IMG/VR virus record: IMGVR_UViG_2778261537_000014
Span: 1 to 21,495 of that record
Length of the DNA stretch: 21,495 bases
Direction: 5' to 3' (one strand)
Origin: a virus
Taxonomy: Duplodnaviria > Heunggongvirae > Uroviricota > Caudoviricetes
The notes beneath the pieces are model-generated. The model was not told the origin of the DNA. It did no database searches and saw only the letters and a program-made list of their open reading frames with translations. Both the position numbers and the translations under genes were made by a program. Each line of letters starts with the position of its first letter. Position 1 is the stretch's first letter. This document shows, in pieces, positions 2,740 through 20,561 of the stretch.

Positions 2740-2742
2740 TAG

Positions 2743-3444: not shown

Positions 3445-3540
3445 AGACTACCGCAAGCCAGGCGGACGCGGTGGAGGGCAGAACACTCCGTGTGTCACTG
3501 TGCCGTGGAAACCGGTCAGTCCGCCTTTTTCGGGGGAATT

Positions 3541-3993: not shown

Positions 3994-4496
3994 GCCAGAC
4001 ACAGCTTGAGAGCCTGACCGCATTTTTTCAGCAAAACGTGCCGCCGCGCGCCATGCAGTCATTTGACAGTGTGCTGGATGAAATGAAGTTCATCCCTGCC
4101 GCGAAGGATTACGGGCTGGGGCAGTACCGCCAAGCGGTGATTCGCTATGACGCGGTAATCAGCTGGCAGCGTTTCCCGTATCGCCTGTGTCCGCCGCAGT
4201 TGCTTATGTCACTGCTGGCTGCGTGGCTGGATGAGGCTGACAGGGAATTACTGGATGAAGTCGGGCTGACTGAGGCCGAACCGGACTGGGACGTGTCCGT
4301 GGAGGATGAGGAAACCGCCACCATTGTGCTGACGGTACCGATGGCGGAAGAACTGGTGATCAGGGAGGACGAACACGGGGCGATCCCGTGGCAGGGGAAA
4401 CGCTGGTCGCTGGTTAACCCTGAAGTCTGGATAGCGATCACCGCCAATATTTATGGCGTGGATGAAACCGGTGCGCCGGTAGGCGGTAACGAATGA
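3990..4496 (+). CDS. Putative tail completion protein, gpR-like
   Basis: 168 aa. ATGA start/stop overlap with the gpL-like gene. Position after the head-completion gene and a weak resemblance (LLMSLLAAWLDE versus the P2 gpR LLIVPVLAWLRE-type segment). Assignment is tentative. Confidence 0.4.
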   Translation: MSQTQLESLTAFFQQNVPPRAMQSFDSVLDEMKFIPAAKDYGLGQYRQAVIRYDAVISWQRFPYRLCPPQLLMSLLAAWLDEADRELLDEVGLTEAEPDWDVSVEDEETATIVLTVPMAEELVIREDEHGAIPWQGKRWSLVNPEVWIAITANIYGVDETGAPVGGNE

Positions 4497-5200: not shown

Positions 5201-6324
5201 CCTGGCCAAACGTGACCGTGAACCAGGTAAACCAGTTGCTGGGTGAAACCAATGAAGTGGAGCGCACGCTGCTGTTTATCGGTACGGGTACCAAAAATGT
5301 GGGGAAAACGCTGGCAGTGAATGCCCAGAGTGATTTTGATGCACTGCTGGGAGAAGGGGAAAGCCCGCTGAAAAACGATGTTCTGGCGGCACTGGCAAAC
5401 GCCGGTCAGAACTGGTGGGCATTTATGCATGTGCTGCCCGCAGATGCTGAGGACGATGCCTGGGTGAAAGCGGTTCTGGCCGCACAGGTGGTGTGTTCGG
5501 TGGAAGGGGTGGTGCTGTCCAGTGATGTGACGGCAAAAGCTCAAGTGAATCAGGCGGCGACGTTACGATCCACGCTGATTTCCAAATATGGGCGCTGGGT
5601 GTGGTTCATCCTGGCCGTGCAGGGAATGCAGGAAGAAGAAGGCCAGGCGGATTACCTGACCCGTGTGTCTGCTATCCAGGACGGTATAGCAGAGAAGGCG
5701 GTGCAGCTGATCCCGCGTCTGTGGGGAAATGAGCCGGGTGTGCTGGCTGGCCGTCTGTGTAGCCGTGCCGTGACTATCGCAGACAGTCCCGCCCGTGTGA
5801 AAACCGGGGCGCTGCTGAATCTGGGCAGTGATGAAATGCCGGTTGATGGTACCGGAGCGGTACTGGAGCTGGCCACGCTTAAGGCACTGGAAGCGCAGCG
5901 CTTTAGTGTGCCGATGTGGTACCCGGATTATGACGGTTTTTACTGGGCTGACGGGCGAACGCTGGATGTGGAAGGCGGCGATTACCAGTCGATTGAAACC
6001 CTGCGTGTTGCCGATAAAGCGGCGCGTCGTGTACGTCTGCTGGCTATCAGCAAAATTGCGGATCGTTCACTCAACAGCACACCGGGCAGCATTGCTGCAC
6101 ACCAGACGCTGTTTGCACGTCCACTGCGTGAAATGTCCACAGCGGCCAGTATCAATGGCGTGTCATTTCCGGGGGAAGTGAAGCCGCCGCAGGATGGTGA
6201 TGTGATCATTGTCTGGAAGAACAAAAAGACGGTGGATATTTATCTGGTGGTACGCACCTGGGAAGTCCCGCTGCAAATCACCATCAGTCTGTTACTGGAT
6301 GCCAGTCTGGAGGCCGCTGCATGA
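5197..6324 (+). CDS. Putative contractile tail sheath protein
   Basis: 375 aa. Immediately upstream of a roughly 150-aa tube-sized gene and downstream of the completion genes. Size is comparable to P2 FI. Call is by synteny; no direct sequence match recalled. Confidence 0.55.
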   Translation: MTWPNVTVNQVNQLLGETNEVERTLLFIGTGTKNVGKTLAVNAQSDFDALLGEGESPLKNDVLAALANAGQNWWAFMHVLPADAEDDAWVKAVLAAQVVCSVEGVVLSSDVTAKAQVNQAATLRSTLISKYGRWVWFILAVQGMQEEEGQADYLTRVSAIQDGIAEKAVQLIPRLWGNEPGVLAGRLCSRAVTIADSPARVKTGALLNLGSDEMPVDGTGAVLELATLKALEAQRFSVPMWYPDYDGFYWADGRTLDVEGGDYQSIETLRVADKAARRVRLLAISKIADRSLNSTPGSIAAHQTLFARPLREMSTAASINGVSFPGEVKPPQDGDVIIVWKNKKTVDIYLVVRTWEVPLQITISLLLDASLEAAA

Positions 6325-6776
6325 GTAAACGTATTTCGGGTATGTCGTTTGATACCTATCTTGACGGCGATCTGATCCACATCGAGAAAATCACGCTCGA
6401 TATCACGGATAACAGCGCCGCCGCCCAGACCCGTGGTGTGCCGGATGGCCATACTGATGGCGATGTGGCCGCAGAGGGAGAAATTGAAGTCAGTTCCAAA
6501 GTGCTGGGCGTACTGACAGCCAAAGCCCGCGCCGCAGGTTCGTGGCGCGGTATTCCTCCACTGGATTTCCTTTTCTATGCCAAAGCGGGCAGCGAAGAAA
6601 TGAAAGTGGAATCGTTCGGCAACAAACTCCAGCTAAGTAATCTGCTGGATATCGATCCCAAGGGCGGCGGTGTGGCGACGCACAAAATCAAATATTTTGT
6701 GACCAGTCCCAAGTTCGTGAACATCAACGGTGTGCCGTATCTGGAAGCGGAAGCCACGGAAAACCTGATCGGATAA
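6321..6776 (+). CDS. Putative tail tube protein
   Basis: 151 aa. ATGA overlap with the sheath-like gene. Size and position are consistent with an FII-like tube protein. Confidence 0.5.
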   Translation: MSKRISGMSFDTYLDGDLIHIEKITLDITDNSAAAQTRGVPDGHTDGDVAAEGEIEVSSKVLGVLTAKARAAGSWRGIPPLDFLFYAKAGSEEMKVESFGNKLQLSNLLDIDPKGGGVATHKIKYFVTSPKFVNINGVPYLEAEATENLIG

Positions 6777-6786
6777 GGAAGCCGGA

Positions 6787-7089
6787 ATGCAGGAACATGA
6801 AAAGAGCCTTTATTCACTGCTGATTATGGGGGCGCTCATTGCTGTTGCGAAGGTGCTGGCCAGTGATGATCCCATTACACCGCGCCTGTTTATCAGCCGT
6901 GTGATCCTGGGCAGTTTTGTTTCAGTCATCGCTGGCGCGGCGCTGATTCAAATCCCGGAGGCCAGCCCGCTGGCTATTCAGGGGCTGGGGGCTGCGCTGG
7001 GTATTGCTGGTTATCAGGCTGTTGAAATGTGGCTGCGCAGACGTGCAGCGGGAAAGAAGAACGGGAGCGTGACAAATGACCCTGAGTGA
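6787..7089 (+). CDS. Holin
   Basis: 100 aa with three hydrophobic helices (LYSLLIMGALIAVAKVLA, ISRVILGSFVSVIAGAALI, LAIQGLGAALGIAGYQAV) and a charged C-terminus. Strong SD AGGAAG 5 nt upstream. Directly precedes the endolysin. Confidence 0.7.
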   Translation: MQEHEKSLYSLLIMGALIAVAKVLASDDPITPRLFISRVILGSFVSVIAGAALIQIPEASPLAIQGLGAALGIAGYQAVEMWLRRRAAGKKNGSVTNDPE

Positions 7090-7417
7090 AAAGCAGCAAC
7101 TGTTTACCGTCATGGTGGCCAACCTGATCCACTGGGCGGAAGAACGAGGCTACCGGCTGACGTTTGGTGAAGCGTACCGCACCCCGGAACAGGCGGCGCT
7201 GAACGCGAAGAAGGGCAGCGGCATTTCTAACAGTCTGCACACCCAGCGTCTGGCCGTGGATTTTAATCTGTTTGTGAATGGCCAGTACCAGACCCGTACA
7301 GAGGACTATCTGCCACTGGGTGAATACTGGGAATCACTGGGCGGAAGCTGGGGCGGGCGCTTCAAATCCAGACCGGATGGTAATCATTTCAGCCTGGAAC
7401 ATAACGGGGTGCGCTGA
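7076..7417 (+). CDS. Endolysin, peptidase M15 family (zinc D-Ala-D-Ala carboxypeptidase / L-Ala-D-Glu peptidase-like)
   Basis: 113 aa. Metal-ligand-like pattern SLHTQRLAVDF ... GGSWGGRF ... DGNHFSLEH, typical of the M15 H-x6-D...H-x-H arrangement. SD GGGAG 8 nt upstream. Overlaps the holin stop. Confidence 0.8.
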   Translation: MTLSEKQQLFTVMVANLIHWAEERGYRLTFGEAYRTPEQAALNAKKGSGISNSLHTQRLAVDFNLFVNGQYQTRTEDYLPLGEYWESLGGSWGGRFKSRPDGNHFSLEHNGVR

Positions 7418-7797
7418 TGAGTCACGCGCAGTGGCTGGTTGTGGTGGCGCTGGCGTTTGTCTGGGGCTGGCTGACAGCTGACTGGCGGCGCGACAGTCTG
7501 GAGCTGGCAATCAATACGGCGGCGCAGGTGGCTGGTAATGAATCGCGAAAGGTTATGCAGGGCATTGCCAGTGATTCCGCCAGGGCGCTGGAAGATAAAC
7601 TGGAGGCGCTAAGAAATGCGCAACCGCGAGAGATCCGCACGGAAGTGCTTAAGCCGGTTTTTACTAACAGGTGCCTGTCTGATGAGTTTGTCAGCATGTA
7701 CAACAGCGCCGTCGCCGGTACCGAACGTGCGTTATCAGGAAAACCTGAAAACACGATGCGCCACGCAGCTGCCGCGCCTGAACGGGGCAACAGGTAA
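7417..7797 (+). CDS. i-spanin, Rz / LysB-like
   Basis: 126 aa with an N-terminal transmembrane segment (WLVVVALAFVWGWL) followed by a charged, helical periplasmic region. Start shares one base with the endolysin stop (TGATG). Contains an embedded lipoprotein ORF in another frame. Confidence 0.6.
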   Translation: MSHAQWLVVVALAFVWGWLTADWRRDSLELAINTAAQVAGNESRKVMQGIASDSARALEDKLEALRNAQPREIRTEVLKPVFTNRCLSDEFVSMYNSAVAGTERALSGKPENTMRHAAAAPERGNR

Positions 7798-7915
7798 AGA
7801 TGCAGCGGAACTGCTGACTGTTTACCTTGAAATATATGGCCAGTGTGCGGCGCGTCATAATCAGTTAGTCGATGAAATTAATTTAAGAGAACGTGTTATT
7901 TATGGAACAAATTAA
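7616..7915 (+). CDS. o-spanin, Rz1 / LysC-like outer-membrane lipoprotein (overlapped architecture)
   Basis: ORF in the +1 frame starting inside the Rz-like gene and running past its stop. Lipobox L-S-A-C after a signal-like segment (FLLTGACLMSLSAC) and a Pro-rich mature N-terminus (CTTAPSPVPN). GGAGG about 10 nt upstream of the ATG. Confidence 0.55.
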   Translation: MRNRERSARKCLSRFLLTGACLMSLSACTTAPSPVPNVRYQENLKTRCATQLPRLNGATGKDAAELLTVYLEIYGQCAARHNQLVDEINLRERVIYGTN

Positions 7916-8159
7916 ACTGAGCGTTTGTGGTGCAGATATTGTTTTTGAACCTAATCAGACTGCTTACAATAAACTGATTAATGAAATGGCAATGGATAAT
8001 AAAGTTGCACCTGCAAATAATTATCTGATGCGTATTGTTACCCCAGAAACGAAAGAAGCACTGATTGACGTATTAAAACGTCCGGGTGCAGCGTTGCAAC
8101 TGGTCAGTAAGGTTAATGATATTTACGCGCCGGAACTGGAGATTGAAGTAAAAAACTGA
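7902..8159 (+). CDS. Tail assembly chaperone (P2 gpE / lambda gpG analogue), zero-frame product
   Basis: Small acidic protein immediately upstream of the tape measure gene. ATG at 7902 is preferred over the ORF-track GTG at 7893. Ends at TGA 8157-8159, directly after the heptamer A_AAA_AAC. Confidence 0.65.
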   Translation: MEQIKLSVCGADIVFEPNQTAYNKLINEMAMDNKVAPANNYLMRIVTPETKEALIDVLKRPGAALQLVSKVNDIYAPELEIEVKN

Positions 8160-8350
8160 CAAAGCGAGTCCATGATATTGAACTAAATGGACTCGAACAG
8201 TATTTAATTCTCCGTCGTCATTATTTACCACATGGCCAGGATTCCGTTGACGATATTGCCGCCGCTATATGGCTGGATAATCGTCACTGGGAATATACGG
8301 GAATAGCCGTAGCTAATGGCGTGGCTAAAGCATTTAAAGGCACTGAATGA
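7902..8350 (+). CDS. Predicted -1 programmed-frameshift fusion chaperone (E+E' / G-T analogue): slip at A_AAA_AAC (8150-8156), then -1 frame open from 8156 to TGA 8348-8350
   Basis: Read directly: the -1 frame after the slippery heptamer has 64 sense codons (LTKRVHDIELNGLEQYLILRRHYLPHGQDSVDDIAAAIWLDNRHWEYTGIAVANGVAKAFKGTE) and ends in ATGA, overlapping the tape-measure start codon at 8347. No start codon exists for this frame. Confidence 0.6.
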
Positions 8351-10314
8351 AACAGTTAGATTTTACATTAAGCCTGATTGATAAATTGTCCCGCCCGTTA
8401 AAACAGGCGCAGGGCAGCGTAACGGGCTTTGCTGAAAAATCAAAAGAAGCCTTTATGCAGATTGGCGGCGGCGTTCTGGGGCTGGCGGGCACAGGGATGG
8501 CCATTAAAGGTGCGCTGATGCCTGCCATTGAAATGTATGACGCGCTGAATGATGCGGCCGCAAAAGGGATCGATGATTCTGCGCTTAAAGCCGTTCAGCG
8601 TGATGCGCTGCGCTTCAGTACAACCTACGGCGCCAGTGCGGTGGAGTTCGTCCAGTCCACGGAAAGTATAAACGCCTCCATTGCCGGACTGACCGGGAAT
8701 GAACTGCCGAAAGTGACGAAAGTCGCCAATACCCTGGCGTTTGCGCTCAAGTCCACCGCAGTAGAAACCGCTGAGTTTATGGGGCAGATGTTCGGTAACT
8801 TTTCCGCCGATGCCAACCGGCTGGGGAAGGTTGAGTTTGCTGAACAACTGGCCGGAAAAATGGTGTTCATGCGCAAAACCTTTGGCACGGAAATGGCCGC
8901 TATCAAGGATTTGATGGAAGGGGCGCGCGGCGTGGGTACTAACTACGGCGTGGGGCTGGATGAACAGCTGGCCGTGCTGGGACAGCTACAGCGGACACTT
9001 GGCACAGAAGCCAGCAGCGCTTATGAGGGCTTTATGACAGGAGCCATTGAGGGCGGTAAAAAGCTGGGGCTGTCCTTCACGGATTCCACCGGCAAAATGC
9101 TGTCCATGCCTGAAATGCTGATCAAGTTACAGGGCAAGTATGGCAAAAGTCTGGAAGGAAATCTGAAGGCCCAGGCTGAACTGGATGCGGCATTTGGAGA
9201 CAGTTCGGCGGTGGTTAAACACCTGTACGGTAATGTGGCATTGCTTCAGCGCAATATCACCGAGCTGGGCGGTGCAGATGGCCTGAAGCGTACCCAGGAA
9301 ATGGCGCAGAAAATGGTGAAGCCGTGGGATCGCTTTGTCGCAATCCTGAAGGCTATCCAGACCGTAATCGGCCTGACGCTGATCCCGGTGCTCTATCCGG
9401 TTCTGAACCGCCTGGCTGATATGGGGCAGACTTTTGCCCGCTGGATGCAGTTGTTTCCCAACATTGCGCGTGTTGTCGGGTATGCGGCAATGGCCTTGCT
9501 CAGCTTTGCGGCTGTGGGTGCTGTCGCCAATATTGTGATGGGGGCCTCTAAATTCATCATGATGGGGTTGCGCGGGATCTGGGTGGCGCTGATGGCCGTC
9601 ACGAAAATTTACACCGCCACTGTCTGGCTGGGAAACATTGCCGTTGTTGCCTGGAACGCCACGCTGAAATTTCTGCGCGGTACGTTGCTGGCGGTTCGTA
9701 TGGCGGCAATGATGGCCGGGATAGGTATCAATCTGATGAGCTGGCCGATCCTGCTGGTGATTGGTGCCGTCGCCTTACTTGCTGCCGGTTGCTGGCTGCT
9801 GATTAAACACTGGGACACGGTAAAGAACGCGGTCATGGATACCGCTGCATTTCAGGCATGCGCCAGGGTAGTGGAATGGCTGGCCGGGGTGTTTACTTCA
9901 GCCTGGCAGTTTATCAGCGAAGGATGGAACAGTTTTATTTCCATGCTGACCGGGTTTTCTCCTTCACAGGCATTAAGCGGTCTGGCCACGGGTATTGTTT
10001 CGTTGTTTGATAATGTCTGGCTGTCCGTTAAAAACGGTTTTCTGAAGTCGTGGAACTGGATTGTTGAGAAACTGAATAAAATCCCCGGTGTGGATATATC
10101 AATGGCAAGTACCACTTCACCACCATTAACTGGAAATACGTTGTCAACGGGTGGAGAGATAAAAGGAATTGATAAGGGCGGGATAAATAAAACAATCAGC
10201 AGCAATTCTAAATCAGTCACTGATAACAGCAAAAAAATAGGGGAGGTTCATTTCCATACCAAAGAAGCGATGTCCCCTGGTCAGTTAATGGAATGGCAGG
10301 AGCTAAATGCGTGA
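8347..10314 (+). CDS. Tail tape measure protein
   Basis: 655 aa, Ala/Gly/Leu-rich with a long central hydrophobic block (for example VLYPVLNRLADMG ... WPILLVIGAVALLAAGCWLLI). Sits immediately downstream of the frameshifted chaperone pair. Confidence 0.8.
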   Translation: MKQLDFTLSLIDKLSRPLKQAQGSVTGFAEKSKEAFMQIGGGVLGLAGTGMAIKGALMPAIEMYDALNDAAAKGIDDSALKAVQRDALRFSTTYGASAVEFVQSTESINASIAGLTGNELPKVTKVANTLAFALKSTAVETAEFMGQMFGNFSADANRLGKVEFAEQLAGKMVFMRKTFGTEMAAIKDLMEGARGVGTNYGVGLDEQLAVLGQLQRTLGTEASSAYEGFMTGAIEGGKKLGLSFTDSTGKMLSMPEMLIKLQGKYGKSLEGNLKAQAELDAAFGDSSAVVKHLYGNVALLQRNITELGGADGLKRTQEMAQKMVKPWDRFVAILKAIQTVIGLTLIPVLYPVLNRLADMGQTFARWMQLFPNIARVVGYAAMALLSFAAVGAVANIVMGASKFIMMGLRGIWVALMAVTKIYTATVWLGNIAVVAWNATLKFLRGTLLAVRMAAMMAGIGINLMSWPILLVIGAVALLAAGCWLLIKHWDTVKNAVMDTAAFQACARVVEWLAGVFTSAWQFISEGWNSFISMLTGFSPSQALSGLATGIVSLFDNVWLSVKNGFLKSWNWIVEKLNKIPGVDISMASTTSPPLTGNTLSTGGEIKGIDKGGINKTISSNSKSVTDNSKKIGEVHFHTKEAMSPGQLMEWQELNA

Positions 10315-10640
10315 ATGAACCACTTTATATAGATTTGCTGATCCTGAAGGGTGATTTTGTTCTAAACACCGGATATGAACCTGAACTGTGTAATAACCGT
10401 AAAAGTATCGGGCAGGACATTATTCACGCCATTATTGAGAGCGGACTGGCAACGGAACTGATTGCTGAACGCAGCCCAACAATGCGGGCGGATATTTTTA
10501 CCCGTATGGAATTATTGATTGAAGATGATGAACGGATTATTCCGGGAACTGTAGAAATCAGTGAGAAAAGCCAGAAACGTTTATGGATAACTGCCAGCAC
10601 CTATGACTTGGGCGGAATTTCTGCGCAGGTGGATTTATGA
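10293..10640 (+). CDS. Putative baseplate wedge protein, gpW / gp25-like
   Basis: 115 aa, the same length as P2 gpW as I recall. Position immediately upstream of the baseplate J gene. Start is ambiguous: ATG 10293 (overlaps the tape-measure end) or GTG 10311 with GGAG 8 nt upstream. Confidence 0.5.
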   Translation: MAGAKCVNEPLYIDLLILKGDFVLNTGYEPELCNNRKSIGQDIIHAIIESGLATELIAERSPTMRADIFTRMELLIEDDERIIPGTVEISEKSQKRLWITASTYDLGGISAQVDL

Positions 10641-11821
10641 CGGAAAAACCGCAGGTTGATTTTGAAGAAGTGGTGAAAGCCAGCGGGTTGCCGGTGACGG
10701 AATCGGAAGTGCGCGAACGCTTCAATGCGATAGCGGCCGAGGAAGGGATCATCACTAACACATCCCGCATGTCACCGTTCTGGCGTCTGATTACGGCCAT
10801 TGTGACGGCACCAGTGATGTGGCTGAAGGATGTTCTGGTATTCACCGTGCTGGCCAATATGTTTGTGGCCACGGCCAGCGGGAGCATGTTGCGTCTGCTG
10901 GCCTGGGCGGTAAACGTCACGGCAAAGCCCGCCAGTGCTGCTCAGGGGGTGATCAGGTTCTTTAAAGAAGATGCCAGAGCCGTGGTGACGGTGAAGACCG
11001 GAACGGTTATCCAGACTGAACGCATCAACGGCCGGGTGTATGAGCTGGCGACCACTGACGATGTGGTGATCCCATCCGGCACTGCCAGTGCATTGCTGCC
11101 GGTGAAAGCCACCGGAACCGGGGGAGCCTATAACCTTGCACCAGGGTATTACCGCATTCTGCCGGTGGCCGTGGATGGTATCAGCCATGTGGCCAGTGAG
11201 GAAAACTGGCTGACAGTGCCGGGTGCCGATGAAGAAAGTGATGATGAACTGCGTGAACGCTGCCGCAACCAGTTCAACCTGGTGGGCAATTACCACACGG
11301 ATGCGGTTTACCGTTCAATGATTGCTGGTGTTGCCGGGCTGAGTATCGACCGGATTTTCTTTGAGCATGAAGCGCCGAGGGGACCGGGTACAGCAAACGC
11401 CTATTTATTGCTGGACAGCGGGGTGGCTTCCGCGCCGTTTGTGAATGCGGTGAATGACTACATCAACACGCAGGGGCATCACGGCCACGGTGACGATATG
11501 CAGTGTTACGCCATGCCGGAAACCCTTCACGATCTGGCCGTGACGGTGTACGTCAGAAATCTGACCAACCTGACAGACGACGAACAGAACAACCTGAAGA
11601 ACGGGATTGAAAACCTGATCCGCTGTGCTTTTCGTGAGAATGCAGATTTTGACGTCAGAAAGACGTGGCCATATTCGCGTTTCTCGTTTTCTCAACTGGG
11701 GCGCGAGATCCACAAAACCTTTTCGCTGGCAGATTCACTGTTCTTTTCTCTGGGTGACATTACCAGTGAGCTGAATGTGCCGCGCCTGAAATCACTGGTA
11801 GTGAGTCTTGAGAATGAATGA
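10637..11821 (+). CDS. Baseplate assembly protein J (Baseplate_J family)
   Basis: 394 aa. ATGA overlap with the upstream gene. Central region (VVTVKTGTVIQTERINGRVYELATTDDVVIPSGTASALLPVKATGTGGAYNLAPG) is typical of baseplate J proteins. Followed by a gpI-like gene. Confidence 0.75.
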   Translation: MTEKPQVDFEEVVKASGLPVTESEVRERFNAIAAEEGIITNTSRMSPFWRLITAIVTAPVMWLKDVLVFTVLANMFVATASGSMLRLLAWAVNVTAKPASAAQGVIRFFKEDARAVVTVKTGTVIQTERINGRVYELATTDDVVIPSGTASALLPVKATGTGGAYNLAPGYYRILPVAVDGISHVASEENWLTVPGADEESDDELRERCRNQFNLVGNYHTDAVYRSMIAGVAGLSIDRIFFEHEAPRGPGTANAYLLLDSGVASAPFVNAVNDYINTQGHHGHGDDMQCYAMPETLHDLAVTVYVRNLTNLTDDEQNNLKNGIENLIRCAFRENADFDVRKTWPYSRFSFSQLGREIHKTFSLADSLFFSLGDITSELNVPRLKSLVVSLENE

Positions 11822-12401
11822 GTTCATGAAAAAGCTGACCGGGATGGTGCTTCCTTCCTGGATGAATCGGGGAGAGCCGAACAAGCTGCTGAAAACAGCC
11901 CGGCGATTCTGGGCGGAGGTTTACGGCTGGATAACATGGCCGATGAATCAGTTTGATCCGCTGACCTGCACCCCGGCATTGCTGAACCTGCTGGCCTATG
12001 ACCGAGATATTACCCGTTTTGACGGGGAGCCATTGAGCCTGTTCCGCAAGCGCGTGGCGTACGCCTTTATTAATGCGCGTGATGCCGGTTCGGTTGAGGG
12101 ATTTATCAATATCTTTGAACGGTTGGGCATTGGATATGTGGAACTGCTGGAGCGCCAGCCGGGGATCGACTGGGACGTGATTCAGGTACGTGTCACTGAT
12201 AGCCAGGTTTCGGACAACACGCAACTGATGATTCAGATTATCCGTAAGTACGGGCGAACATGCCGCCGTTATCAGTTTGAAGTGATTACATCAGAGAGCC
12301 TGGCAATTCGGGCGGGATGGGATCAGGGGGAATATGTGGTTTATCCGGCATCATTAAGCGGTACGGAAACACCCAGCGCGACATTCAGCGCGGGTTTGTA
12401 A
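11814..12401 (+). CDS. Tail protein I, gpI-like
   Basis: Motif DPLTCTPALLNLLAYDRDITRFD resembles the P2 gpI NPDTCPAALLPWLAWALSVDRWD-type signature. ATG 11814 overlaps the J stop (ATGAATGA); the ORF track used TTG 11808. Confidence 0.8.
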   Translation: MNEFMKKLTGMVLPSWMNRGEPNKLLKTARRFWAEVYGWITWPMNQFDPLTCTPALLNLLAYDRDITRFDGEPLSLFRKRVAYAFINARDAGSVEGFINIFERLGIGYVELLERQPGIDWDVIQVRVTDSQVSDNTQLMIQIIRKYGRTCRRYQFEVITSESLAIRAGWDQGEYVVYPASLSGTETPSATFSAGL

Positions 12402-12411
12402 GGAGTTTTAT

Positions 12412-13959
12412 ATGTCACAGACAACGATAACGCTGGCGTTTGAGCAGTGGAAAGCGAAACAGGGTACTACGGGTGAGCCTGTTCTATTGGATGAATTTGT
12501 TTTTGCCAGTGTGCCGGGGCTAGACCCTGATGCGCCCATTGATCGGGCTGAGGTGTTGCCGCCTGAATCGCAGATTGTTCATCGCCAGGCAGTCAGCCGC
12601 AAAGGCGTTGTAAATAACAACGCCGTGGTGCATTCCGCTGTTCTGGGCGCTGATGTGGGCGATTTTTCGTTTAACTGGATTGGGTTGGTTAACAAGGCCA
12701 GCGGCACACTGGCAATGATTGTTCATGCGCCGGTACAACAGAAGCTGAAAACAAAAGAAGGGCAGCAAGGTAACGTTCTGACCCGTTCTTTTTTGATGGA
12801 ATACAACGGCGCACAGGCTGAAACCGGAATTAATACACCGGCTGAAACCTGGCAGATTGATTTCACGGCGCGTATGGCCGGAATGGATGAGCGCCAGCGC
12901 CTGGAAAATGTTGATATTTACGGCGCAGCGGCATTCTTTGGGGACGGTTATCTGGTCGGGAAAACGGGTAATCAGTTTTTCGTCACCAAAGGCACCGGAT
13001 ATGTGGCGGGGCTGCGTTCTTCACTGGTTGCAAATCAGGATATTACCGTGACAACTAAGCCTGTAAAAGTCTGGCTGGATGTGTGCTGGACTGGGACGTT
13101 GACTGGTGTCTGGAATGCGCAGAGCAAAATTACTGTAGCGGAAAAACTGACTGATTATGTGCTGGGTGGGGTGCAACATTATGTTTTTGCGCTCGCCAGT
13201 ATTGATTCAGATGGCAATATCACGGATTTACGCCCAAAGGGTACGCTGAATGAACAACAGGCTACTGATGCGCTTAAAAGGCATGAGCAATCCCGGAATC
13301 ACCCCGATGCTTCAATCACAGAAAAGGGGTTTGTACAGTTAAGCAGTGCAACGGATAGCAATTCCGAAAAACTGGCCGCAACGCCCGCTGCGGTTAAGCA
13401 GGTTAACGAGAACGCCAATAAAAGACAGCTGGCGAATCCTCTGTTAACTGCACTTGCCAATCTTGCCACGCAAAAGAACATGTTTCCGTGGTTTACCGGG
13501 GAAAATACCGTTGCTACCAGTGCACTGACTGAATTTGCCCGTGAATTGCTTAGTAAAGGTGATGTGGCATCGGTTCTCAGGCATCTGAAACTGGGGAACG
13601 CCGCTACAAAAGATGTTGGTGTTCTGCCCGGGCAGGTGTTACCCGCGACAGCGTTTACTGCGCATTTGTCTGGATCGGGAATGTGTAAATTCCCGGTTCA
13701 GGCAACATCCGGAGCGTTTATTAATCTGATTTTTATGTGGGGCGTTACCAGTACCCCACCTGGTTCTTCTGCTGGTTACAATTTCCACACGGCTTTTCCC
13801 TATGCCTGTCTGATGGCTATGGGGTGTCGCGGGGCGGATGGTACGAATGCCAGTATGAATGTCAGGGCGCATAACAACACAACAATGATTATTCAGAACT
13901 GGGCACCAGTGGGGTCCGGTTACTGGGAAGACTGCATTTGGTTTGCAATTGGTTACTGA
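12412..13959 (+). CDS. Tail fiber protein, gpH-like
   Basis: 515 aa. Perfect SD AAGGAG. Internal block HEQSRNHPDASITEKGFVQLSSATDSNSEKLAATPAAVK closely matches the P2 gpH repeat HEQSRRHPDASLTAKGFTQLSSATNSTSETLAATPKAVK. Divergent C-terminal domain. Confidence 0.85.
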   Translation: MSQTTITLAFEQWKAKQGTTGEPVLLDEFVFASVPGLDPDAPIDRAEVLPPESQIVHRQAVSRKGVVNNNAVVHSAVLGADVGDFSFNWIGLVNKASGTLAMIVHAPVQQKLKTKEGQQGNVLTRSFLMEYNGAQAETGINTPAETWQIDFTARMAGMDERQRLENVDIYGAAAFFGDGYLVGKTGNQFFVTKGTGYVAGLRSSLVANQDITVTTKPVKVWLDVCWTGTLTGVWNAQSKITVAEKLTDYVLGGVQHYVFALASIDSDGNITDLRPKGTLNEQQATDALKRHEQSRNHPDASITEKGFVQLSSATDSNSEKLAATPAAVKQVNENANKRQLANPLLTALANLATQKNMFPWFTGENTVATSALTEFARELLSKGDVASVLRHLKLGNAATKDVGVLPGQVLPATAFTAHLSGSGMCKFPVQATSGAFINLIFMWGVTSTPPGSSAGYNFHTAFPYACLMAMGCRGADGTNASMNVRAHNNTTMIIQNWAPVGSGYWEDCIWFAIGY

Positions 13960-13960
13960 G

Positions 13961-14407
13961 ATGATGATGACTGACAAATACCGTTTTTCCGGCAATATTT
14001 TTTACCCATATTCCAGTAAAGCTGATTTTGATGCTGCCGGAACATGGCCAAAATCCGGCGTGGATGTGGATCTGACTACTTATCTGACTTTTATTCAGCC
14101 ACCTCCGTTTGGAAAGTTGCTTGGTACCGACAAAAAAGGCGCGCCATGCTGGATTGATATTCCGCCATTAACGCGCGAACAATTGATCACCCAGGCTAAG
14201 TATGAGAAAAGCCGCCGCCTGGATGAAATTAATATGTTCATCAATGACAGGCAGTGGCTGGGTAAGGCGGTGCTGGGCCGTCTTACTGACGACGAAAAAG
14301 AACTGTATGGGAAAGCCCTGGATTACCTTGATGAACTTAGCGCCTTGGATCCGCAAGATATGCCAGACAACTGGCCGGAATTTGAGGGATTTACCAATGT
14401 GGCGTGA
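13961..14407 (+). CDS. Tail fiber assembly chaperone, gpG / Tfa-like
   Basis: About 148 aa, immediately downstream of the tail fiber gene. Start is at the ATGATGATG run just after the fiber stop. Confidence 0.65.
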   Translation: MMMTDKYRFSGNIFYPYSSKADFDAAGTWPKSGVDVDLTTYLTFIQPPPFGKLLGTDKKGAPCWIDIPPLTREQLITQAKYEKSRRLDEINMFINDRQWLGKAVLGRLTDDEKELYGKALDYLDELSALDPQDMPDNWPEFEGFTNVA

Positions 14408-15122
14408 AGCACGTCTGGCCTTCACTGACTCACTGACAGCACTGAATTGTTCGGTCGTTCCGGCGCATCCGTGGATAAACGGACTGGGGCAACAAACGGA
14501 TAATGGGGCATATCTCAGTCCGGTTAATGCTGTCCGCTATCTTGCTGAAAGGCTTGCCGGAACGGGGGGGAATACCGATGTGATGATCATGATGGTGACT
14601 GGTCAGACGCATGAAAACTTTATTACCCGCCTCAACGGTCTGGTAGATGTTTTTCCGGCACCGGCTTTCACTCAGGTCAAGCGCCTGGCGCAATCCGCCG
14701 CGGCGCTGGCCATCGAAAAAATGCAGATCCCTGCGAAAACTGGGGCAGGGTTACCGGTTGCCATTCCTCTGTCGGTGCCAACCACCAGGGCGGCATTGTC
14801 AGCTGCGGCTGTCAGCCAGGCACAAAAAGCGGCCAGCGCAGGTTTCAGCCTGGGCGGGTTAAAGCAGCAACTGGGGGAATTCACGCAGCTGCGTGAAAAA
14901 CTTATCGGTGATGTGGCCAGCGGGCTGGACGATTTACAGGGAAAAAGCGCCAGAGCCTGGGTGTTTACGAGCAACGGCAACACAGCCACCACGCTGCTGG
15001 AGCTGGTAAAAGATATTCCGCAGCCATCAGCCGTTTATGCAGCGGCAGTGATGCTGGTTGGTGACAATCTGGATGGAATAAAGGGAATGATTCATGACTT
15101 CGATCCCAATACTGGCGCTTAA
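14397..15122 (+). CDS. Hypothetical protein (241 aa), function unknown
   Basis: ATG at 14397 with SD GAGGGA 8 nt upstream, overlapping the Tfa-like stop. Ala/Leu/Gly-rich; no motif recognised. The ORF-track start at 14202 is rejected as an upstream extension. Confidence 0.5.
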   Translation: MWREARLAFTDSLTALNCSVVPAHPWINGLGQQTDNGAYLSPVNAVRYLAERLAGTGGNTDVMIMMVTGQTHENFITRLNGLVDVFPAPAFTQVKRLAQSAAALAIEKMQIPAKTGAGLPVAIPLSVPTTRAALSAAAVSQAQKAASAGFSLGGLKQQLGEFTQLREKLIGDVASGLDDLQGKSARAWVFTSNGNTATTLLELVKDIPQPSAVYAAAVMLVGDNLDGIKGMIHDFDPNTGA

Positions 15123-15639
15123 CGGCGAGGCCATACCGCTGAAAAACATGCGTGTGACTGTATCGCAGCAGTTTCAGGATAAAGACCAGTCCGGCCAGAC
15201 AAGCGCCACAACCAAATCAGAACAGGGGGCAAAGGGGAAAGAGCTGCGTATCAGTGGCGAAATTCCGTTTAAAAGCCCGGAGATCCTGAAGCGTATTTTT
15301 GAACTGGCCAGCGCCACGGATGCCGGAGGAAATCGCCAGAAATACCGCGTGGCGCATGAAGTGGCCAGAGCCGTGAATTTTCGCGAGGCGACATTCAGCG
15401 GGATGCTTGATGCTCCGCAGCAGGACGGGAAAATGGCCTGGCTGGTTACGTTCACCCTGGCGGAACATATCAGCGTGCAGGAAAAGCGGGAAGCCAGGGC
15501 AACAGGCAAAACGTCTGCCAAAAAACAGACTGCCGGTAATGCGGGACAATCTGGCGGCCAGAGTGCCGGAGAAGATGAAGAAAAACTGACGTGGTTTGAA
15601 AAACGGGTGCTGAAACCCGTCAATGATGCTTTGGGTTAA
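15094..15639 (+). CDS. Hypothetical protein (181 aa); possibly a gpU-like tail protein by position
   Basis: SD AAGGGA 7 nt upstream. Overlaps the upstream ORF by 29 nt. Low-complexity Gly/Ser/Gln/Ala-rich stretch near the C-terminus. No family recognised. Confidence 0.45.
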   Translation: MTSIPILALNGEAIPLKNMRVTVSQQFQDKDQSGQTSATTKSEQGAKGKELRISGEIPFKSPEILKRIFELASATDAGGNRQKYRVAHEVARAVNFREATFSGMLDAPQQDGKMAWLVTFTLAEHISVQEKREARATGKTSAKKQTAGNAGQSGGQSAGEDEEKLTWFEKRVLKPVNDALG

Positions 15640-17342
15640 TGATGAAACCAGTTAAACGCCTGTACCTTTCAACGGATGAAGTTCACCTGGCTGATGCCAG
15701 CCTTGTGCTGGAGCTGAACAGCTGCGGCCGGGGATTTATCACTGCACAGACAGCCGCGGATTACACCGGGAAACTGGTGCGGCTGGATGTGGGGTATTCC
15801 GATCTGCTTTTGCGCTGGTTTACTGGTTATGTGGAACGCTCACAACCCGCCGAAAACGGCTTTCAGCGTCTGTTTGTGCGCGAGCTGGTCGGCGTTTTTG
15901 AAAGAATGTGGCCATGTTCATTTCAGCATCCCACTTTGCGCAAGGTTGCCAACTGGCTGGAGGAAAACAGCGGAATTACAGTCAGTGTGCCGGATGCCCC
16001 TTACAGCGATAAACCGATCCCCCATTTCACTCATAACGGCACGGGCTATCAGTTGCTGAATAATCTGGGCAGAGCATTCAGTATTCAGGATTACATCTGG
16101 TACCAGTTGCCAGATGGTTCCCTGTATGTGGGCGGCGCGGAAAAAGCGATGTTTGCCGGTCGTCCGGTAGATATCCCGGCAGAGTTCAGCCAGGGGGCTG
16201 CTGGCGGTAATTCCATGACGCTGCCGGTGATCCAGAGTCTGCGGCCGGGAGTGGAGCTGAACGGGGAGCGCGTGACAAAAGTGCACCTGACCAATGACAC
16301 AATGGCAGTTACCTGGACACCCAGAAATCGCGCAACAGGTCAGCCCTTACAGAAAACACCGGCACAGCGTCAGATTGAAAGCCATTACCCGGAACTGGCT
16401 TCCGGGCTGCACCTGCCAAAACTGGCCAGAGTGATAGCACCCAGTGAGGTCGTGAAAAGTGGTAGTTTTGCCGATCCGTTCCGGCCACGCTATGCCGTTG
16501 ATGTGCAACTGCTTGATGCAGACGGCAACCCGGATAACCAGACGCCAGTTTATTCTGCGGTGCCGCTGCCGGTACCTATGGCCGGTAATGACTCCGGCAT
16601 GTTCCAGTTTCCGCCAGAAGGAACGCTGGTTGAAGTTGCGTTTACCGGAGGGCGCCCGGATAAACCTTTTATCAGGCAGACGCTGCCAGATGGTACCAGT
16701 CTGCCGGATGTTAAGCCCGGTGAGCAGCTGCAACAGCAGCGGGCTGAAGTGTCGCAGCGTGTTACCCAGGCTGGCGATTGGGTACGGCAGACCGATCAGA
16801 CTATCAGCGAAATATCGATGGCGCGGACGGTCAAAGCCGACACGGAACAGCGTGATCTGATCAGCCGTGAAACCACGGTTAAAGCCACTGATAAAACTAC
16901 GGTGCTGGGTACCGCCACCCTGATGGCCGGAGCCATTCAGCAGGTCAGTGCCGGGGATTATAGCCAGGCCGTGAAAGGCAACAGGCTGGCCAGCATTGAA
17001 GGGAATGACGAAACCGATATTGCAGGGGAACAGTCCACTAAGGTGGCCGGAGGCGTGGATGTATATGTGGGGGGAACCCTGACTGAAAAGATTGCTGCAT
17101 TACGCAAATCTGTAGCATCGGGCGGCCAGCAGATTATGGGACCAACCGTCCATATTGGTAGTGAGAGTGTCAACACGCTGGCCATGATGCTGGATACCAT
17201 TGATTTACTGGCGGAGCTGGCGCAGCAATGTGCGAGCCATTCACACCCCAGCGTGGCTACGCCAACCAATGCCGGCGCATTTACCCAGACGGCAGAAAAG
17301 GCCGGACAGACCCGCAAGAAGTACCAGAGCATAATTGCCTGA
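15639..17342 (+). CDS. Baseplate hub-spike fusion protein: gpD-like N-terminal domain plus gpV-like spike C-terminal domain (VgrG-like)
   Basis: 567 aa. N-terminal block TLRKVANWLEENSGITVSVP resembles P2 gpD TLRQIAETLANEHGLELEVP. The region AVPLPVPMAGNDSGMFQFPPEGTLVEVAFTGGRPDKPFI resembles the gpV/gp5 OB-fold signature (WLTHRAGRSRTWWAPSVGEQVLIL...). HxH motif near the C-terminal tip (SHSHP, nt 17238-17246) is like P2 gpV HTHKHP. Confidence 0.65.
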   Translation: MMKPVKRLYLSTDEVHLADASLVLELNSCGRGFITAQTAADYTGKLVRLDVGYSDLLLRWFTGYVERSQPAENGFQRLFVRELVGVFERMWPCSFQHPTLRKVANWLEENSGITVSVPDAPYSDKPIPHFTHNGTGYQLLNNLGRAFSIQDYIWYQLPDGSLYVGGAEKAMFAGRPVDIPAEFSQGAAGGNSMTLPVIQSLRPGVELNGERVTKVHLTNDTMAVTWTPRNRATGQPLQKTPAQRQIESHYPELASGLHLPKLARVIAPSEVVKSGSFADPFRPRYAVDVQLLDADGNPDNQTPVYSAVPLPVPMAGNDSGMFQFPPEGTLVEVAFTGGRPDKPFIRQTLPDGTSLPDVKPGEQLQQQRAEVSQRVTQAGDWVRQTDQTISEISMARTVKADTEQRDLISRETTVKATDKTTVLGTATLMAGAIQQVSAGDYSQAVKGNRLASIEGNDETDIAGEQSTKVAGGVDVYVGGTLTEKIAALRKSVASGGQQIMGPTVHIGSESVNTLAMMLDTIDLLAELAQQCASHSHPSVATPTNAGAFTQTAEKAGQTRKKYQSIIA

Positions 17343-17352
17343 CTATCCCTTC

Positions 17353-17378
17353 AGCCCGCGCATAATGCGGGCTTTTTT
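17353..17378 (+). terminator. Rho-independent terminator closing the late/tail operon
   Basis: 7-bp GC-rich stem AGCCCGC / GCGGGCT with 7-nt loop GCATAAT, followed by TTTTTT. Lies 11 nt after the hub-spike stop codon. Confidence 0.75.
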
Positions 17379-18023
17379 GTGCCCATCCTCAGACCCCACC
17401 AGACGCATTCTAAGCGCTTCTTTTATCTGACCACTACCGCGCAACACCACAAAAGGATCTGTTCTGTCACGTTACGCTGACGACGCTACACGCTGACAAA
17501 ATAAATCTTTCGCAGACAAAAACGGCACTACACCGCACCCGCCTGCGGTTTCTGGATAGATAAAATTTTTCAGTTTTCTTTTTCTACAAATTAGGCAGCC
17601 AGACAGCGCCAGTTCTGGCGGTTTGCGGGATATTTCAAACTGAAAAGATTGAAAAGAATTTCAGCATTTTTCAGTTAGAAGGATCAGTGAAGGATCTGAG
17701 TGAGTTTATAACTATCAGATAAATATAGTAAAATATCACTTTCCGTGTGAAGCACGATCTAATTTTATTAGAAGTAGTGTTGAGATGAAAAAACTCGCAG
17801 GCTTAGGAATGATGCTAGATGTAGCTGAGTTAGAAAAATTTTGAAACTGAAATTTTTTGTCTTAGACATTAACCTGTTAGATATGAGATTACTTGCTTTT
17901 TTGCTGCAAAGTATTTGGTAATCTAGCTAAAAGCACTAGCGGATTAGACTATTGTTGGTTTGATCTCAATTGGCTCTTTGAAGTACAGGATAGAAACATT
18001 TAATTGGAAACTGAGAGGATGTT

Positions 18024-18638
18024 ATGCCATTTGCTCAAATGATGCGCGATAAATTAACACTAGTAAAACAAGATGGTAGTCGTATTGAAGATCTAAAAGG
18101 AAGTGTTCAGAAAGGGAAAATAATCATCATGAGAGGGGATATCTCGATTGAACCTGACGATGAACTGCATCGTGCAATGCCAGCTGGAAAATTTGAGGAG
18201 TACATTGTTGTTGAGCCGAATTTTCGGCAGGGACTCCATGGGATACCGTCCCATTACCAAGCTGAGGTGAGGAGGAAGACCCAAAGTAACTTTGTTACAG
18301 GAGCAACTCCGGGTGCACATACCATAAATTACAATCTATATGGTGCGAACAGCAGAGTGAACAACGACTCTATCGATAATTCTAGAAACTTCTCGGGAAG
18401 TGATGAAAATATTCGTCAGGTTTTGCAGGTTCTATCATCAGCACGAAAGGATGTCGAGTCTGCCACAATGGAACCAACCGATGTGCAAACAACAACTGCT
18501 ACTCTAGATATCGTCGAAAGCCAAATACAGACACAGGCACCTTCGAAGCCTGTGATTAAGACCTTGTTAGCTGGATTACCTGCTGTTGCGCAGGCATTGC
18601 CTTCGATAGTCAAATTGATTGAATTCTTTAAGGATTAA
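18024..18638 (+). CDS. Hypothetical protein (204 aa) in a visibly AT-rich accessory segment; unknown function, candidate moron or defense gene
   Basis: Strong SD GAGAGGA 5 nt upstream of the ATG. Codon usage and flanks are much more AT-rich than the phage or host genes. Compact N-terminal domain, Asn/Ser/Thr-rich middle, and a C-terminal amphipathic/hydrophobic segment (PVIKTLLAGLPAVAQALPSIVKLIEFF). No family recognised. Confidence 0.6.
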   Translation: MPFAQMMRDKLTLVKQDGSRIEDLKGSVQKGKIIIMRGDISIEPDDELHRAMPAGKFEEYIVVEPNFRQGLHGIPSHYQAEVRRKTQSNFVTGATPGAHTINYNLYGANSRVNNDSIDNSRNFSGSDENIRQVLQVLSSARKDVESATMEPTDVQTTTATLDIVESQIQTQAPSKPVIKTLLAGLPAVAQALPSIVKLIEFFKD

Positions 18639-18720
18639 CGCTCTGTCGCCATTTTGTCGCCACACTCGTTAAATGTGTGCTCTAAACGGTTGATTCGAAA
18701 GGGGCTGAATTTCAGGCAAC

Positions 18721-18763
18721 AAAAAACCCATCAACCTTGAACCGAAATGGCGGGGTTGATGGG
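18721..18763 (-). terminator. Probable rho-independent terminator downstream of ybjL (minus strand)
   Basis: Perfect 10-bp inverted repeat CCCATCAACC / GGTTGATGGG (18727-18736 and 18754-18763) with a 17-nt loop. On the minus strand the stem is followed by TTTTTTG. Lies about 110 nt beyond the ybjL stop. Confidence 0.5.
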
Positions 18764-18875
18764 CTCCACAAAATGGGGACATCAAAGAAAAGCAGTGGCA
18801 TTAATTAAGACTGATGCCCTGCGGAAAAGTTCTGCGGTTGTGCAAAAAAATTTCATTTTCAGGGCAACTTCAGTT

Positions 18876-20561
18876 TTATCCTAATCCTGGCCATACCATG
18901 ACGATGATTGTCCCTGCCAGCGTCAGCAGGACGTTGGCGATTGCGTAGGTGCCCGCATAGCCCAGCGCAGGGATGTTACTGCGAGCTGTATCACTGATGA
19001 TCTCCATTGCCGGCGCGCAGGTGCGTGCGCCCATCATTGCGCCGAACAACAGTGCGCGGTTCATTCGCAATACATAAGCACCGAACAAGAAACAGATAAC
19101 CACGGGCACAAGACTGACAATTAATCCGGCAATCAACATCTGACCGCCAATCGCGCCCAGGCCGTTATTAATACCGCTACCGGCGCTCAGACCAACGCCT
19201 GCCATAAACACCATCAAGCCGAACTCTTTCACCATGCTTAATGCACCTTGCGGAATGTAACCGAAGGTCGGGTGGTTAGCACGCATAAAGCCCAGCATAA
19301 TTCCGGCGAATAACAACCCGGCAGCGTTCCCCATGCCGAAACTGAATGTGCTGAACTGGAAGGTGATCATCCCGATCATCAGCCCAATAACAAAGAAGGC
19401 GCAAAATGCCAGCAGGTCAGTGACCTGGCTGTGAATCGAGATAAAGCCGATGCGATCGGCGATGGTTTTTACGCGACGGGCATCACCGCTGACTTGTAAA
19501 ACGTCACCTTTGTTAAGCACGACGTTGTCATCTATCGGCATCTCAATCTGGCTACGAATGACGCGGTTAAGGAAGCAACCGTGATCGGTCAACTTCAGTT
19601 GTGCGAGACGTTTACCTACAGCGTTATGGTTTTTAACGACCACTTCTTCAGTGACGATACGCATGTCGAGAAGGTCACGATCGAAAACTTCTTTACCGTT
19701 ACGGAAGCTGGGATCGAGTCGGGCATGGGCGTCGGGATAGCCTACCAACGCTATTTCATCGCCCATTTGTAGCACGGCATCACCGTCTGGATTTGCCAGA
19801 ATCCCGTTACGTCGAATACGTTCAATGTAGCAGCCGGTTTGTCGATAAATACCCAGTTCACGCAGATTTTTGCCGTCGGTCCAGGCCACCAGCTCCGGGC
19901 CGACGCGATAGGCGCGGATCACCGGTAAATAAACCTTACGGTTGGCATCAGTGTCCAGGCCACGTTCGCGGGCGATTTGCTGGGCGCTGGTCTGTAAGTC
20001 CTGATGCTGCAATTTCGGCAAGTAACGCGCACCAACAATCAAACTCACCAGACCGATTAAATAGGTTAAGGCATACCCGAGGCTCAGATTATCCAGTGCC
20101 AGTGAGAGCTGCCTGCTTTCCATGCCGGAATGACGCAGTGTATCGCCAGCACCGACCAGAACCGGTGTCGACGTCATAGAGCCTGCTAACATACCGGCCG
20201 TCAGGCCAATATCCCAGCCAAACAGCTTACCTAACCCTAAGGCGATCACCAGCGCACTGCCAACCATCACCAGTGCTAACATTAGGTAATTTTTCCCATC
20301 GCGAAAAAAAATGGAAAAAAAGTTCGGTCCGGCTTCGACCCCGACGCAGAAAATAAACAGCATAAAGCCAAGATTAAGCGCATCGGTGTTAATGCTGAAA
20401 TGTTGTTGGCCTAATAACAGCGATACGACTAAAACGCCAATGGAATTACCCAGTTGGATCGAACCAAGTCGTAACTTTCCGAGACATAGCCCAAGCGCGA
20501 GGACCACAAATAATAACAGAATGTAATTCCCATTTAACAATTCGGCGACGTTTATATTCAC
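18876..20561 (-). CDS. ybjL: Putative AAE-family transporter YbjL
   Basis: 561-aa polytopic membrane protein with paired transmembrane blocks flanking central cytoplasmic regions. Recognised as E. coli YbjL from memory. GTG start at 20561. Confidence 0.85.

Follow-up and report, generated by a model that had tools for sequence, protein, structure and literature searches.

What is the solitary, AT-rich gene that lies between the late genes of a prophage and the Escherichia coli chromosome in the virus record IMGVR_UViG_2778261537_000014, and what might its 204-amino-acid (204-aa) product do? We examined a stretch of 21,495 nt (positions 1–21,495 of that record; hereafter, the window), which, according to the open reading frame (ORF) list and the annotation, begins with the late-gene half of a prophage and continues into the E. 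coli chromosome. The 204-aa gene is a self-contained moron in a slot next to the DNA packaging site (cos) of a Peduoviridae prophage of the ESSI-2 type that is inserted at the 3′ end of the host gene rybB. It is also a candidate for a single-protein, abortive-infection-type defense gene, a function to which we assign roughly even chances.

The 204-aa gene and its position between cos and the attachment site

The 204-aa gene is real and is under purifying selection. Comparison with a 75%-identical homologue gave a nonsynonymous rate (pN) of 0.154 and a synonymous rate (pS) of 0.784 (pN/pS approximately 0.2, with the synonymous sites saturated). Close homologues (53–75% identity; approximately 22 clusters) occurred in Enterobacter, Citrobacter, Klebsiella aerogenes, Cronobacter, E. 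coli, and Yersinia, and were solitary, with no abutting partner gene. In an exhaustive profile search, the family comprised 1258 clusters (50% identity) at E ≤0.001 and 727 at E ≤1e-10, with most members 190–205 aa long. The sequence-only reading, an earlier examination of the bare letters, had been unable to place the gene in any known family. This held for the curated libraries, because Pfam and NCBIfam searches with the protein and its family (55 members for Pfam) gave nothing above noise, but not beyond them, because PHROG 16834 (function unknown) matches the protein at E 8.6e-43 and the large family described above exists without a name. Its named members are annotated “hypothetical protein” in source-name look-ups, except for one labeled “DUF1192 family.” A PDB sequence search with two profiles gave weak matches only, the best of which was a trimeric autotransporter adhesin fragment (E 0.12). 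A tblastn search of the 204-aa protein against 50,697 phage records returned zero matches, and the sole match of a distant homologue was Cronobacter phage ENT39118.

The features around the gene, in window coordinates, are as follows.

15639–17342: 567-aa baseplate/tail gene, the last of the tail operon
17353–17373, plus strand: intrinsic terminator (8-bp GC-rich stem and T-run) closing the tail operon; stem kept in sister prophages
17480–17700, no strand: cos (DNA packaging) region; conserved noncoding backbone with repeated TTTCAGT/ACTGAAA and GGATC motifs
17528–17542, no strand: CTACACCGCACCCGC, 15 nt, present at both the start and the end of the ESSI-2 record; putative cohesive end (cosN)
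17700–18023, plus strand: upstream cargo-specific region, 32% GC, presumed to contain the gene’s own promoter
18024–18638, plus strand: 204-aa orphan gene; ATG start, with the Shine–Dalgarno (SD) sequence GAGAGGA at 18013–18019, five to ten bases upstream
18643–18662, no strand: CTGTCGCCATTTTGTCGCCA, putative attP-derived arm motif immediately following the stop codon, common to sister prophages
~18708–18718, no strand: phage/host junction (attR), where identity with prophage-free E. coli starts
18718–18796, minus strand: rybB, complete host small RNA gene (Rfam RF00110, 105.3 bits, E 3.6e-22, model positions 1–79 of 79)

The prophage belongs to the ESSI-2 group of Peduoviridae (Quadragintavirus/Seongnamvirus), and window positions 71–17531 give matches of 85% to Escherichia phage ESSI2_ev129 and of 76% to Cronobacter phage ESSI-2. 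Its genes run from those for terminase, P2-type capsid, tail, and lysis to the 567-aa baseplate gene (stop at 17342), and on the chromosome side, ybjL (18876–20561, minus strand) is followed by ybjM and grxA. The sequence-only reading had described an AT-rich segment with one well-formed gene beyond an operon-ending terminator, and both observations stand: the GC content is 0.324 at 17700–18023 and 0.428 in the 204-aa gene, compared with 0.556 for the gene that ends the tail operon and 0.512 for ybjL, and the terminator at 17353–17373 is an intrinsic one. Two of its other assignments need to be replaced. Most of the “640-nt leader” of the gene is the phage cos site, and the supposed “ybjL terminator” (18639–18875) holds the putative attP-derived arm, attR, and the complete rybB gene.

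We conclude that 17480–17700 represents the cos region of the ESSI-2-like phage, not a leader, because it is conserved across different cargos, virion-derived records end within it, and its core recurs in a satellite-like element. In an alignment of approximately 650 nt, from the terminator to the ATG, positions ~17345–17700 were strongly conserved among sister prophages, even where the downstream genes differed wholly. The virion-derived records of ESSI-2, ev129, and ev015 all end inside this region, at 17528–17542; the ev129 and ev015 assemblies stop immediately after GGCGCTAC and immediately before CGCCTGCGG or GCACCCGCC, flanking the 15-mer, and leftover Nextera adapter is attached at three of these four record ends. 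This transposase adapter (CTGTCTCTTATACACATCT...) remains in the public records at both ends of ev129 (NC_049394.1, L004; positions 1–43 and the last ~49 nt) and at the start of ev015 (NC_049395.1, L019; first ~48 nt), abutting the true genome ends. Two other readings of the conserved noncoding block were rejected: an attP arm, in that approximately 1 kb of cargo separates the block from the core, and a coding gene, in that the window contains nothing corresponding to a 114-aa call in a sister locus (L005). ORFs of ≥60 aa were absent from 17343–18023. The 204-aa gene starts 482 nt from the cos 15-mer and is the terminal gene in the packaged linear genome.

The cos core consists of CAGAC.AAAACGGCACTACACCGCACCCGCCTGCGGTTT plus the block AACTGAAAAGA.TGAAAAGAA.TTCA...TTTTCAGT. 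As a weak match of approximately 75% identity, the core (window 17513–17676) was found in approximately 466 of 5426 complete E. coli genomes (~9%). In the one such genome inspected, that of ST131 strain EC958, the core is part of a small integrative element at tRNA-Arg (L052, 6001–6164) carrying int, sce7725/sce7726-family, ogr/Delta-like, DUF927 primase, Icd-like, and P2-family major capsid genes. This element resembles a satellite that makes use of the ESSI-2-like phages’ packaging site and keeps its own variable genes beside cos; by analogy, the relationship would be the same as that between P4 and the cos of P2.

On the right-hand side, the attachment site of the prophage extends over the 3′ end of rybB without disrupting the gene, and an Rfam scan of 17200–19000 detected nothing except RybB. 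The motif CTGTCGCCATTTTGTCGCCA also occurs in a P2-like, ogr-bearing prophage (L020) integrated at the same site, and we read it as a likely attP arm. The 204-aa gene and rybB converge, and the former lacks its own terminator; therefore, read-through transcription would be antisense to RybB. With the conserved block at 17345–17700 assigned to the phage and attR and rybB on the right, the foreign cargo proper spans ~17700–18640, consisting of one gene and its own AT-rich upstream region between cos and attP. The upstream region (17700–18023) was not conserved when aligned with sister prophages carrying other cargo.

The slot between cos and the attachment site behaves as a hotspot, since related prophages carry different genes there, including candidate defense genes. 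At least seven different cargos occupy this slot, and those of sister prophages include the following.

JNE25-001: ATPase, STAS-like, and PIN genes
TK3887: 345-aa protein, PADLOC PDC-S64 (4.7e-42)
MFDS1019527: serine acetyltransferase and 524-aa ATPase (HEC-04, 3.1e-33; OLD/PARIS-type ATPases)
SC434: DUF6338 gene and two unknowns
EcPF15: two unknowns
ev015 and ev129: acetyltransferase and unknowns

The PADLOC matches in the slot were PDC-S64 (a candidate) and HEC-04, an OLD-like ATPase, and six other slot proteins had no PADLOC match. The suggestion that the gene is a moron at a prophage end was supported by megablast and sensitive blastn searches, in which the cargo had no match in the 5426 complete E. 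coli genomes, and by its absence from the prophage-free rcdA–ybjL interval. As to whether the gene travels with the prophage or varies as a cassette, both patterns were seen: it accompanies ESSI-2-like prophages in other Enterobacteriaceae, where the 75%-identical homologue occupies the same slot beside ybjL, decayed prophages included (L007), and the slot cargo differs among sister prophages. Heavily decayed prophage copies, from which head or tail modules have been deleted (L007 and EcPF15, which is L001), keep slot genes beside ybjL, suggesting that the cargo is retained after the phage dies.

A second insertion point lies between the tail-operon terminator and cos, and holds a hexapeptide acetyltransferase gene in one sister prophage (L005, 6687–7241) and a 255-nt ORF in others (L003, 7694–7948; L054, 4691–4945). 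The 567-aa tail gene upstream of the terminator matches no Pfam family and has a faint local likeness to VgrG (TIGR01646, E 0.0038, residues 313–357); in public records it is labeled just “baseplate protein” or “hypothetical.”

Architecture and modularity of the protein

The 204-aa protein has a three-part architecture. In an AlphaFold model built with 55 sequences, residues 9–84 form a six-stranded barrel (predicted local distance difference test score [pLDDT] ~91), residues 87–125 are disordered (linker pLDDT <50), and helices span residues 127–146, 151–169, and 175–203 (pLDDT ~62–77). These models agree with the division into an N-terminal domain, a polar linker, and a C-terminal amphipathic helix that had been proposed from the translation. 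The coding segments are as follows.

18024–18281, plus strand (residues 1–86): N-terminal six-stranded β-barrel domain, putative sensor
18330–18389, plus strand (residues 103–122): nearly invariant motif Y-N-x-x-G-x-N-S-R-V-N-x-x-S-x-D-N-S-x-N, disordered in monomer models
18402–18635, plus strand (residues 127–204): C-terminal helical region, putative effector
18549–18626, plus strand (residues ~176–201): moderately hydrophobic, proline-kinked tail

The motif at residues 103–122 is the most conserved sequence of the family, although it lies within the predicted disordered segment. G107, N113, S116, D118, S120, and N122 are invariant in the family alignment, and R111 is nearly so. From the alternating conservation along the motif, we infer that it may form a strand that becomes ordered only upon oligomerization. 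At the C-terminus, the final ~25 residues, KPVIKTLLAGLPAVAQALPSIVKLIEFF, have a Kyte–Doolittle (KD) hydropathy of 1.67, an Eisenberg mean hydrophobicity (<H>) of 0.55, and a hydrophobic moment (muH) of 0.40, and a comparable hydrophobic tail was present in 95% of the standalone members. Residues ~176–201 are the sole hydrophobic segment of the protein, which has no signal peptide or N-terminal membrane segment. We read this tail as probably membrane-associating or multimeric-transmembrane, rather than as a classic single transmembrane helix.

In some relatives, the C-terminal module is replaced by a TIR domain. A TIR domain of the CAP12/Pycsar type (Pfam PF10137, 8.7e-36) is joined to an N domain that shares 60% identity with the 204-aa protein across 88 residues (E 2e-34). 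Approximately 25 clusters contained this fusion at ≥98% coverage of the 366-aa query, and their source genomes were those of Salmonella, E. coli, Citrobacter, Klebsiella, and Kluyvera. In another relative, the barrel and the motif are kept and a TIR_2 domain that matches the PADLOC spbK model is added. Among the relatives, P0092, P0353, and P0113 have TIR matches; the 204-aa protein itself has no TIR match in Pfam or PADLOC. Further relatives have unrelated C-termini or N-terminal extensions. In two of the relatives, P0150 and P0162, the C-terminal module is replaced by domains of ~150 residues with Rx4-6H motifs (RDFRNLVH, RNIADAH) that are reminiscent of HEPN by eye, a reading that no profile confirmed.

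The E. coli TIR fusion lies in an AlpA/DUF3987 element beside a Gabija-like pair, an OLD-TOPRIM ATPase and a UvrD helicase. The TIR fusion is always followed, 33–37 nt downstream, by a gene for a 373–376-aa protein with a weak DUF4238 match (L055–L060, 7001–9268), and the pair also occurs on a Citrobacter plasmid, suggesting that the two genes may form a cassette.

The C-terminal half has a separate set of relatives. The PADLOC model PDC-M14B matches residues 112–201 of the 204-aa protein (model positions 169–256 of 261) at E 4e-5, and matches family relatives at E 1e-8 to 3.5e-10. PDC-M14 is an untested two-gene candidate identified by guilt by embedding (Payne et al. 2024, preprint); a literature search on “PDC-M14” and six WP_ accessions returned no papers. 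Given that the N domain is joined to TIR in relatives and the C-terminal half to a different N-terminus in PDC-M14B, both halves behave as exchangeable modules, a pattern that resembles that of sensor–effector defense proteins.

Throughout the family, the genes occupy accessory positions. Some are immediately upstream of the tail sheath gene (L014 and L022; in L014 next to invertase and tail-fiber genes), a position that presumably corresponds to that of Z/fun in P2. Others lie between the tail tube gene FII and the chaperone gene E, co-oriented in the tail operon (six viral contigs), directly upstream of the small terminase gene (three contigs), or in integrative islands with the toxin–antitoxin genes HicAB or Phd/Fic. 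In a distant subfamily (33–37% identity), a 118-aa gene always begins 1–3 nt after the stop codon (L010, L012, and L014, 7595–7951; L024 and L030, 5595–5951), and is a 113-aa gene in L039 (5594–5935). PADLOC and Pfam searches of the neighbors of the distant homologues (the 118-aa partner, a 282-aa protein, a 160-aa protein, and others) found nothing.

Candidate function and alternatives

A defense role is plausible, because TIR is swapped in as an effector, a TIR-bearing relative has a Gabija-like neighborhood, and the C-terminal half matches PDC-M14B. In such a role, the N-terminal barrel would sense infection, and our leading guess is that it would dock on a component of the invader’s head–tail connector, because its best structural matches are phage neck and stopper proteins. 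The invariant N-x-R-V-N-x-x-S-x-D-N-S-x-N strand and the helices that follow it would then drive oligomerization, and the clustered, moderately hydrophobic C-terminal helices would insert into or perturb the inner membrane, so that the infected cell would be stopped before progeny release. In the relatives, TIR would do the killing in place of the membrane helices.

The neck resemblance comes from structure comparison. The matches of the barrel to phage neck/stopper proteins (e.g., 8vhx_F, 8fwe_AM, 9lbn_J, and 2kz4_A) were mixed with PilZ domains, and no Foldseek match reached an E-value of 0.001 or better. A search of BFVD returned “SPP1 head-tail adaptor” with a probability of 1.0 but an E-value of 2.6e-3. 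A barrel fold of the neck-protein kind is present, but the Foldseek assignment is ambiguous. When the family profile was aligned by hhalign with the prophage’s own Ad1, tail terminator, and Neck1 proteins, the probability was ≤1%. We treat the resemblance as a lead and not as proven homology. Neck and connector components are known immune triggers of Avs12, 14, and 15 (PMC12803255), and the sensing of a neck component by the barrel is plausible by analogy; a literature search for neck-like sensor domains in defense returned nothing relevant. In its most specific form, which we consider improbable, this proposal would make the family a widespread, unnamed class of one-protein sensors with an exapted neck (stopper/Neck2) fold, which would dock on the symmetric head–tail connector of the invader, the viral ring templating the clustering of effectors until they fire. 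The interchangeable effectors would be a membrane-inserting helix here and TIR, or possibly a HEPN-like domain, in relatives, and self-tolerance might follow if the carrier Peduoviridae prophage builds its neck without such a stopper.

Several observations weigh against the defense interpretation and its mechanism. PDC-M14 is itself only a candidate, to which the 204-aa protein has a partial and weak match (E 4e-5). The Foldseek matches in the PDB were weak (E 0.045 or worse), with PilZ domains and neck proteins interleaved, and a sequence-profile link to neck families was absent from both the Pfam search of 55 members and the PDB profile searches. By the hydrophobicity thresholds commonly applied in transmembrane calls, the C-terminal tail falls short of what is usual for a monomeric transmembrane helix. 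Upstream of the gene, we detected no convincing promoter; the one promoter-like site in the upstream region (17705–17734) was no better than chance expectation. Finally, the abutting 118-aa partner of some subfamilies is absent beside the window copy, and thus the solitary form might be incomplete.

The alternative that survives best, although we regard it as rather unlikely, is that the gene does not defend at all. It would then serve lysogenic conversion or the phage’s own interests, for instance as a membrane-associated factor that acts on host physiology, on the timing of lysis, or in envelope-level superinfection exclusion, or it would be a silent passenger. The lack of a clear promoter leaves room for such a role, as does the fact that sister phages have acetyltransferase genes, a typical kind of conversion gene, in this slot; relatives are also co-oriented inside the tail operon in the six viral contigs. 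Against this alternative stand the strong purifying selection on the gene and the lack of a signal peptide or N-terminal membrane segment of the sort found in envelope exclusion proteins. Furthermore, the TIR-fused relatives have neighbors that are Gabija-like or weakly DUF4238-like, and the family also occurs in non-phage islands.

More doubtful is an assembly decoy, in which the neck-like barrel would enter or cap the head–tail connectors of competitors and block tail joining or DNA retention, with no active killing of the host and with C-terminal helices that only obstruct. The BFVD match to an SPP1 head–tail adaptor at a probability of 1.0 favors such a protein, although the match of the barrel fold is not decisive. 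TIR domains in known defense systems act as NAD-degrading effectors, and the recurrent replacement of the C-terminal module by TIR fits a sensor–effector protein better than a passive plug. Prophage-encoded blockers of tail assembly do exist, namely Tab (PMC10884400) and Tai (PMC11364771), but no sequence relation of the 204-aa protein to Tab (83 aa; not aligned) was apparent, and tblastn found no match to the 204-aa protein in the 50,697 phage records, where the presence of phi80, which encodes a Tai, was unchecked.

Least probable is an orphan second-messenger receptor, a membrane effector with a PilZ-like or S-2TM-beta-like nucleotide-binding barrel switched on by a cyclic nucleotide from elsewhere in the cell or phage: the TIR found on the same barrel is of the normally nucleotide-activated CAP12/Pycsar type (PF10137), and Cap15 and OptE do pair a β-barrel nucleotide sensor with membrane helices, but no cyclase, CD-NTase, or SMODS gene is adjacent in the Pfam-annotated contexts, no PADLOC Cap15 or S-2TM-beta match was obtained, the pattern D/NxSxxG, which we take to be the PilZ motif, is not kept in the family consensus by eye and no RxxxR occurs near the N-terminus, the domain order is reversed relative to Cap15, and the Foldseek E-values were all 0.045 or worse.

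If the 204-aa gene defends, it would add to the defense catalogue a compact single-gene family that lies outside Pfam and NCBIfam and is half covered by PADLOC, and the combination of one sensor domain with alternative effectors (membrane helix or TIR) would offer a natural experiment on the sensing of phage assembly intermediates. If it does not, it is an ordinary prophage moron.

Comparison with known systems

Compared with SPP1 gp16-like stopper, Neck2, and head-closure proteins, the 204-aa protein has an extra C-terminal region of 120 residues and relatives fused to TIR, and its gene lies outside the head–tail gene module. It shares with PDC-M14B the C-terminal module, with the N-x-R-x-N-x-x-S-x-D-x-S-x-N strand, helices, and hydrophobic tail (model positions ~150–255 of ~265), whereas the N-terminal ~150 residues of PDC-M14B are unmatched, so that the likeness is not full-length. 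PDC-M14 also has an A component, and no ORF of ≥60 aa flanks the 204-aa gene between cos and attR. As for single-protein TIR sensors (SpbK-like, CAP12/Pycsar-type, and PADLOC PDC-S35), relatives of the 204-aa protein fuse the same N domain to such a TIR, implying a common sensor-plus-effector logic, and the presumed effector in the 204-aa protein is instead a helical, hydrophobic C-terminus.

The S-2TM-beta proteins Cap15 and OptE likewise couple a small β-barrel to membrane-active helices (PMC12657218), and membrane disruption driven by oligomerization is a model of how the 204-aa protein might work. They have two N-terminal transmembrane helices and a C-terminal barrel, whereas the barrel of the 204-aa protein is N-terminal, and they form an operon with a nucleotide cyclase; no such gene was found in the window or among the annotated neighbors of the homologues. 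HepS (a HEPN protein that senses the tail tip), Tab, and Tai are similarly encoded by solitary prophage moron genes and target, or respond to, virion components of competitors, but no homology to the 204-aa protein was apparent, no Tai sequence having been compared. Identity with Tab was rejected: Tab is an 83-aa protein encoded between the terminase genes, at a different locus (PMC10884400).

The closest parallel to the position of the gene is provided by P2 and P4, in which anti-phage hotspots adjacent to cos are established (old/tin in P2; Rousset et al. 2022, PMC9122126). The ESSI-2-like slot appears to be a cos-adjacent hotspot of the same kind as P2 old/tin: it lies directly beside a Peduoviridae cos, its cargo varies between similar prophages, and some of that cargo has PADLOC matches to candidate defense genes. 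As with P4 satellites, there is a satellite-like element with the same cos core, next to which it has variable genes of its own. The arrangement differs from that of P2 in that the P2 cos lies between gpA and gpQ, whereas the ESSI-2-like cos is flanked by the end of the tail operon on one side and attP/int on the other, so that cos and the attachment site form the boundaries of the slot. The cos site and the cos-adjacent slot of ESSI-2-like Peduoviridae are newly delimited here; they would extend the hotspot-by-cos rule of P2 and P4 to a third lineage and provide a simple genomic handle for mining further candidates.

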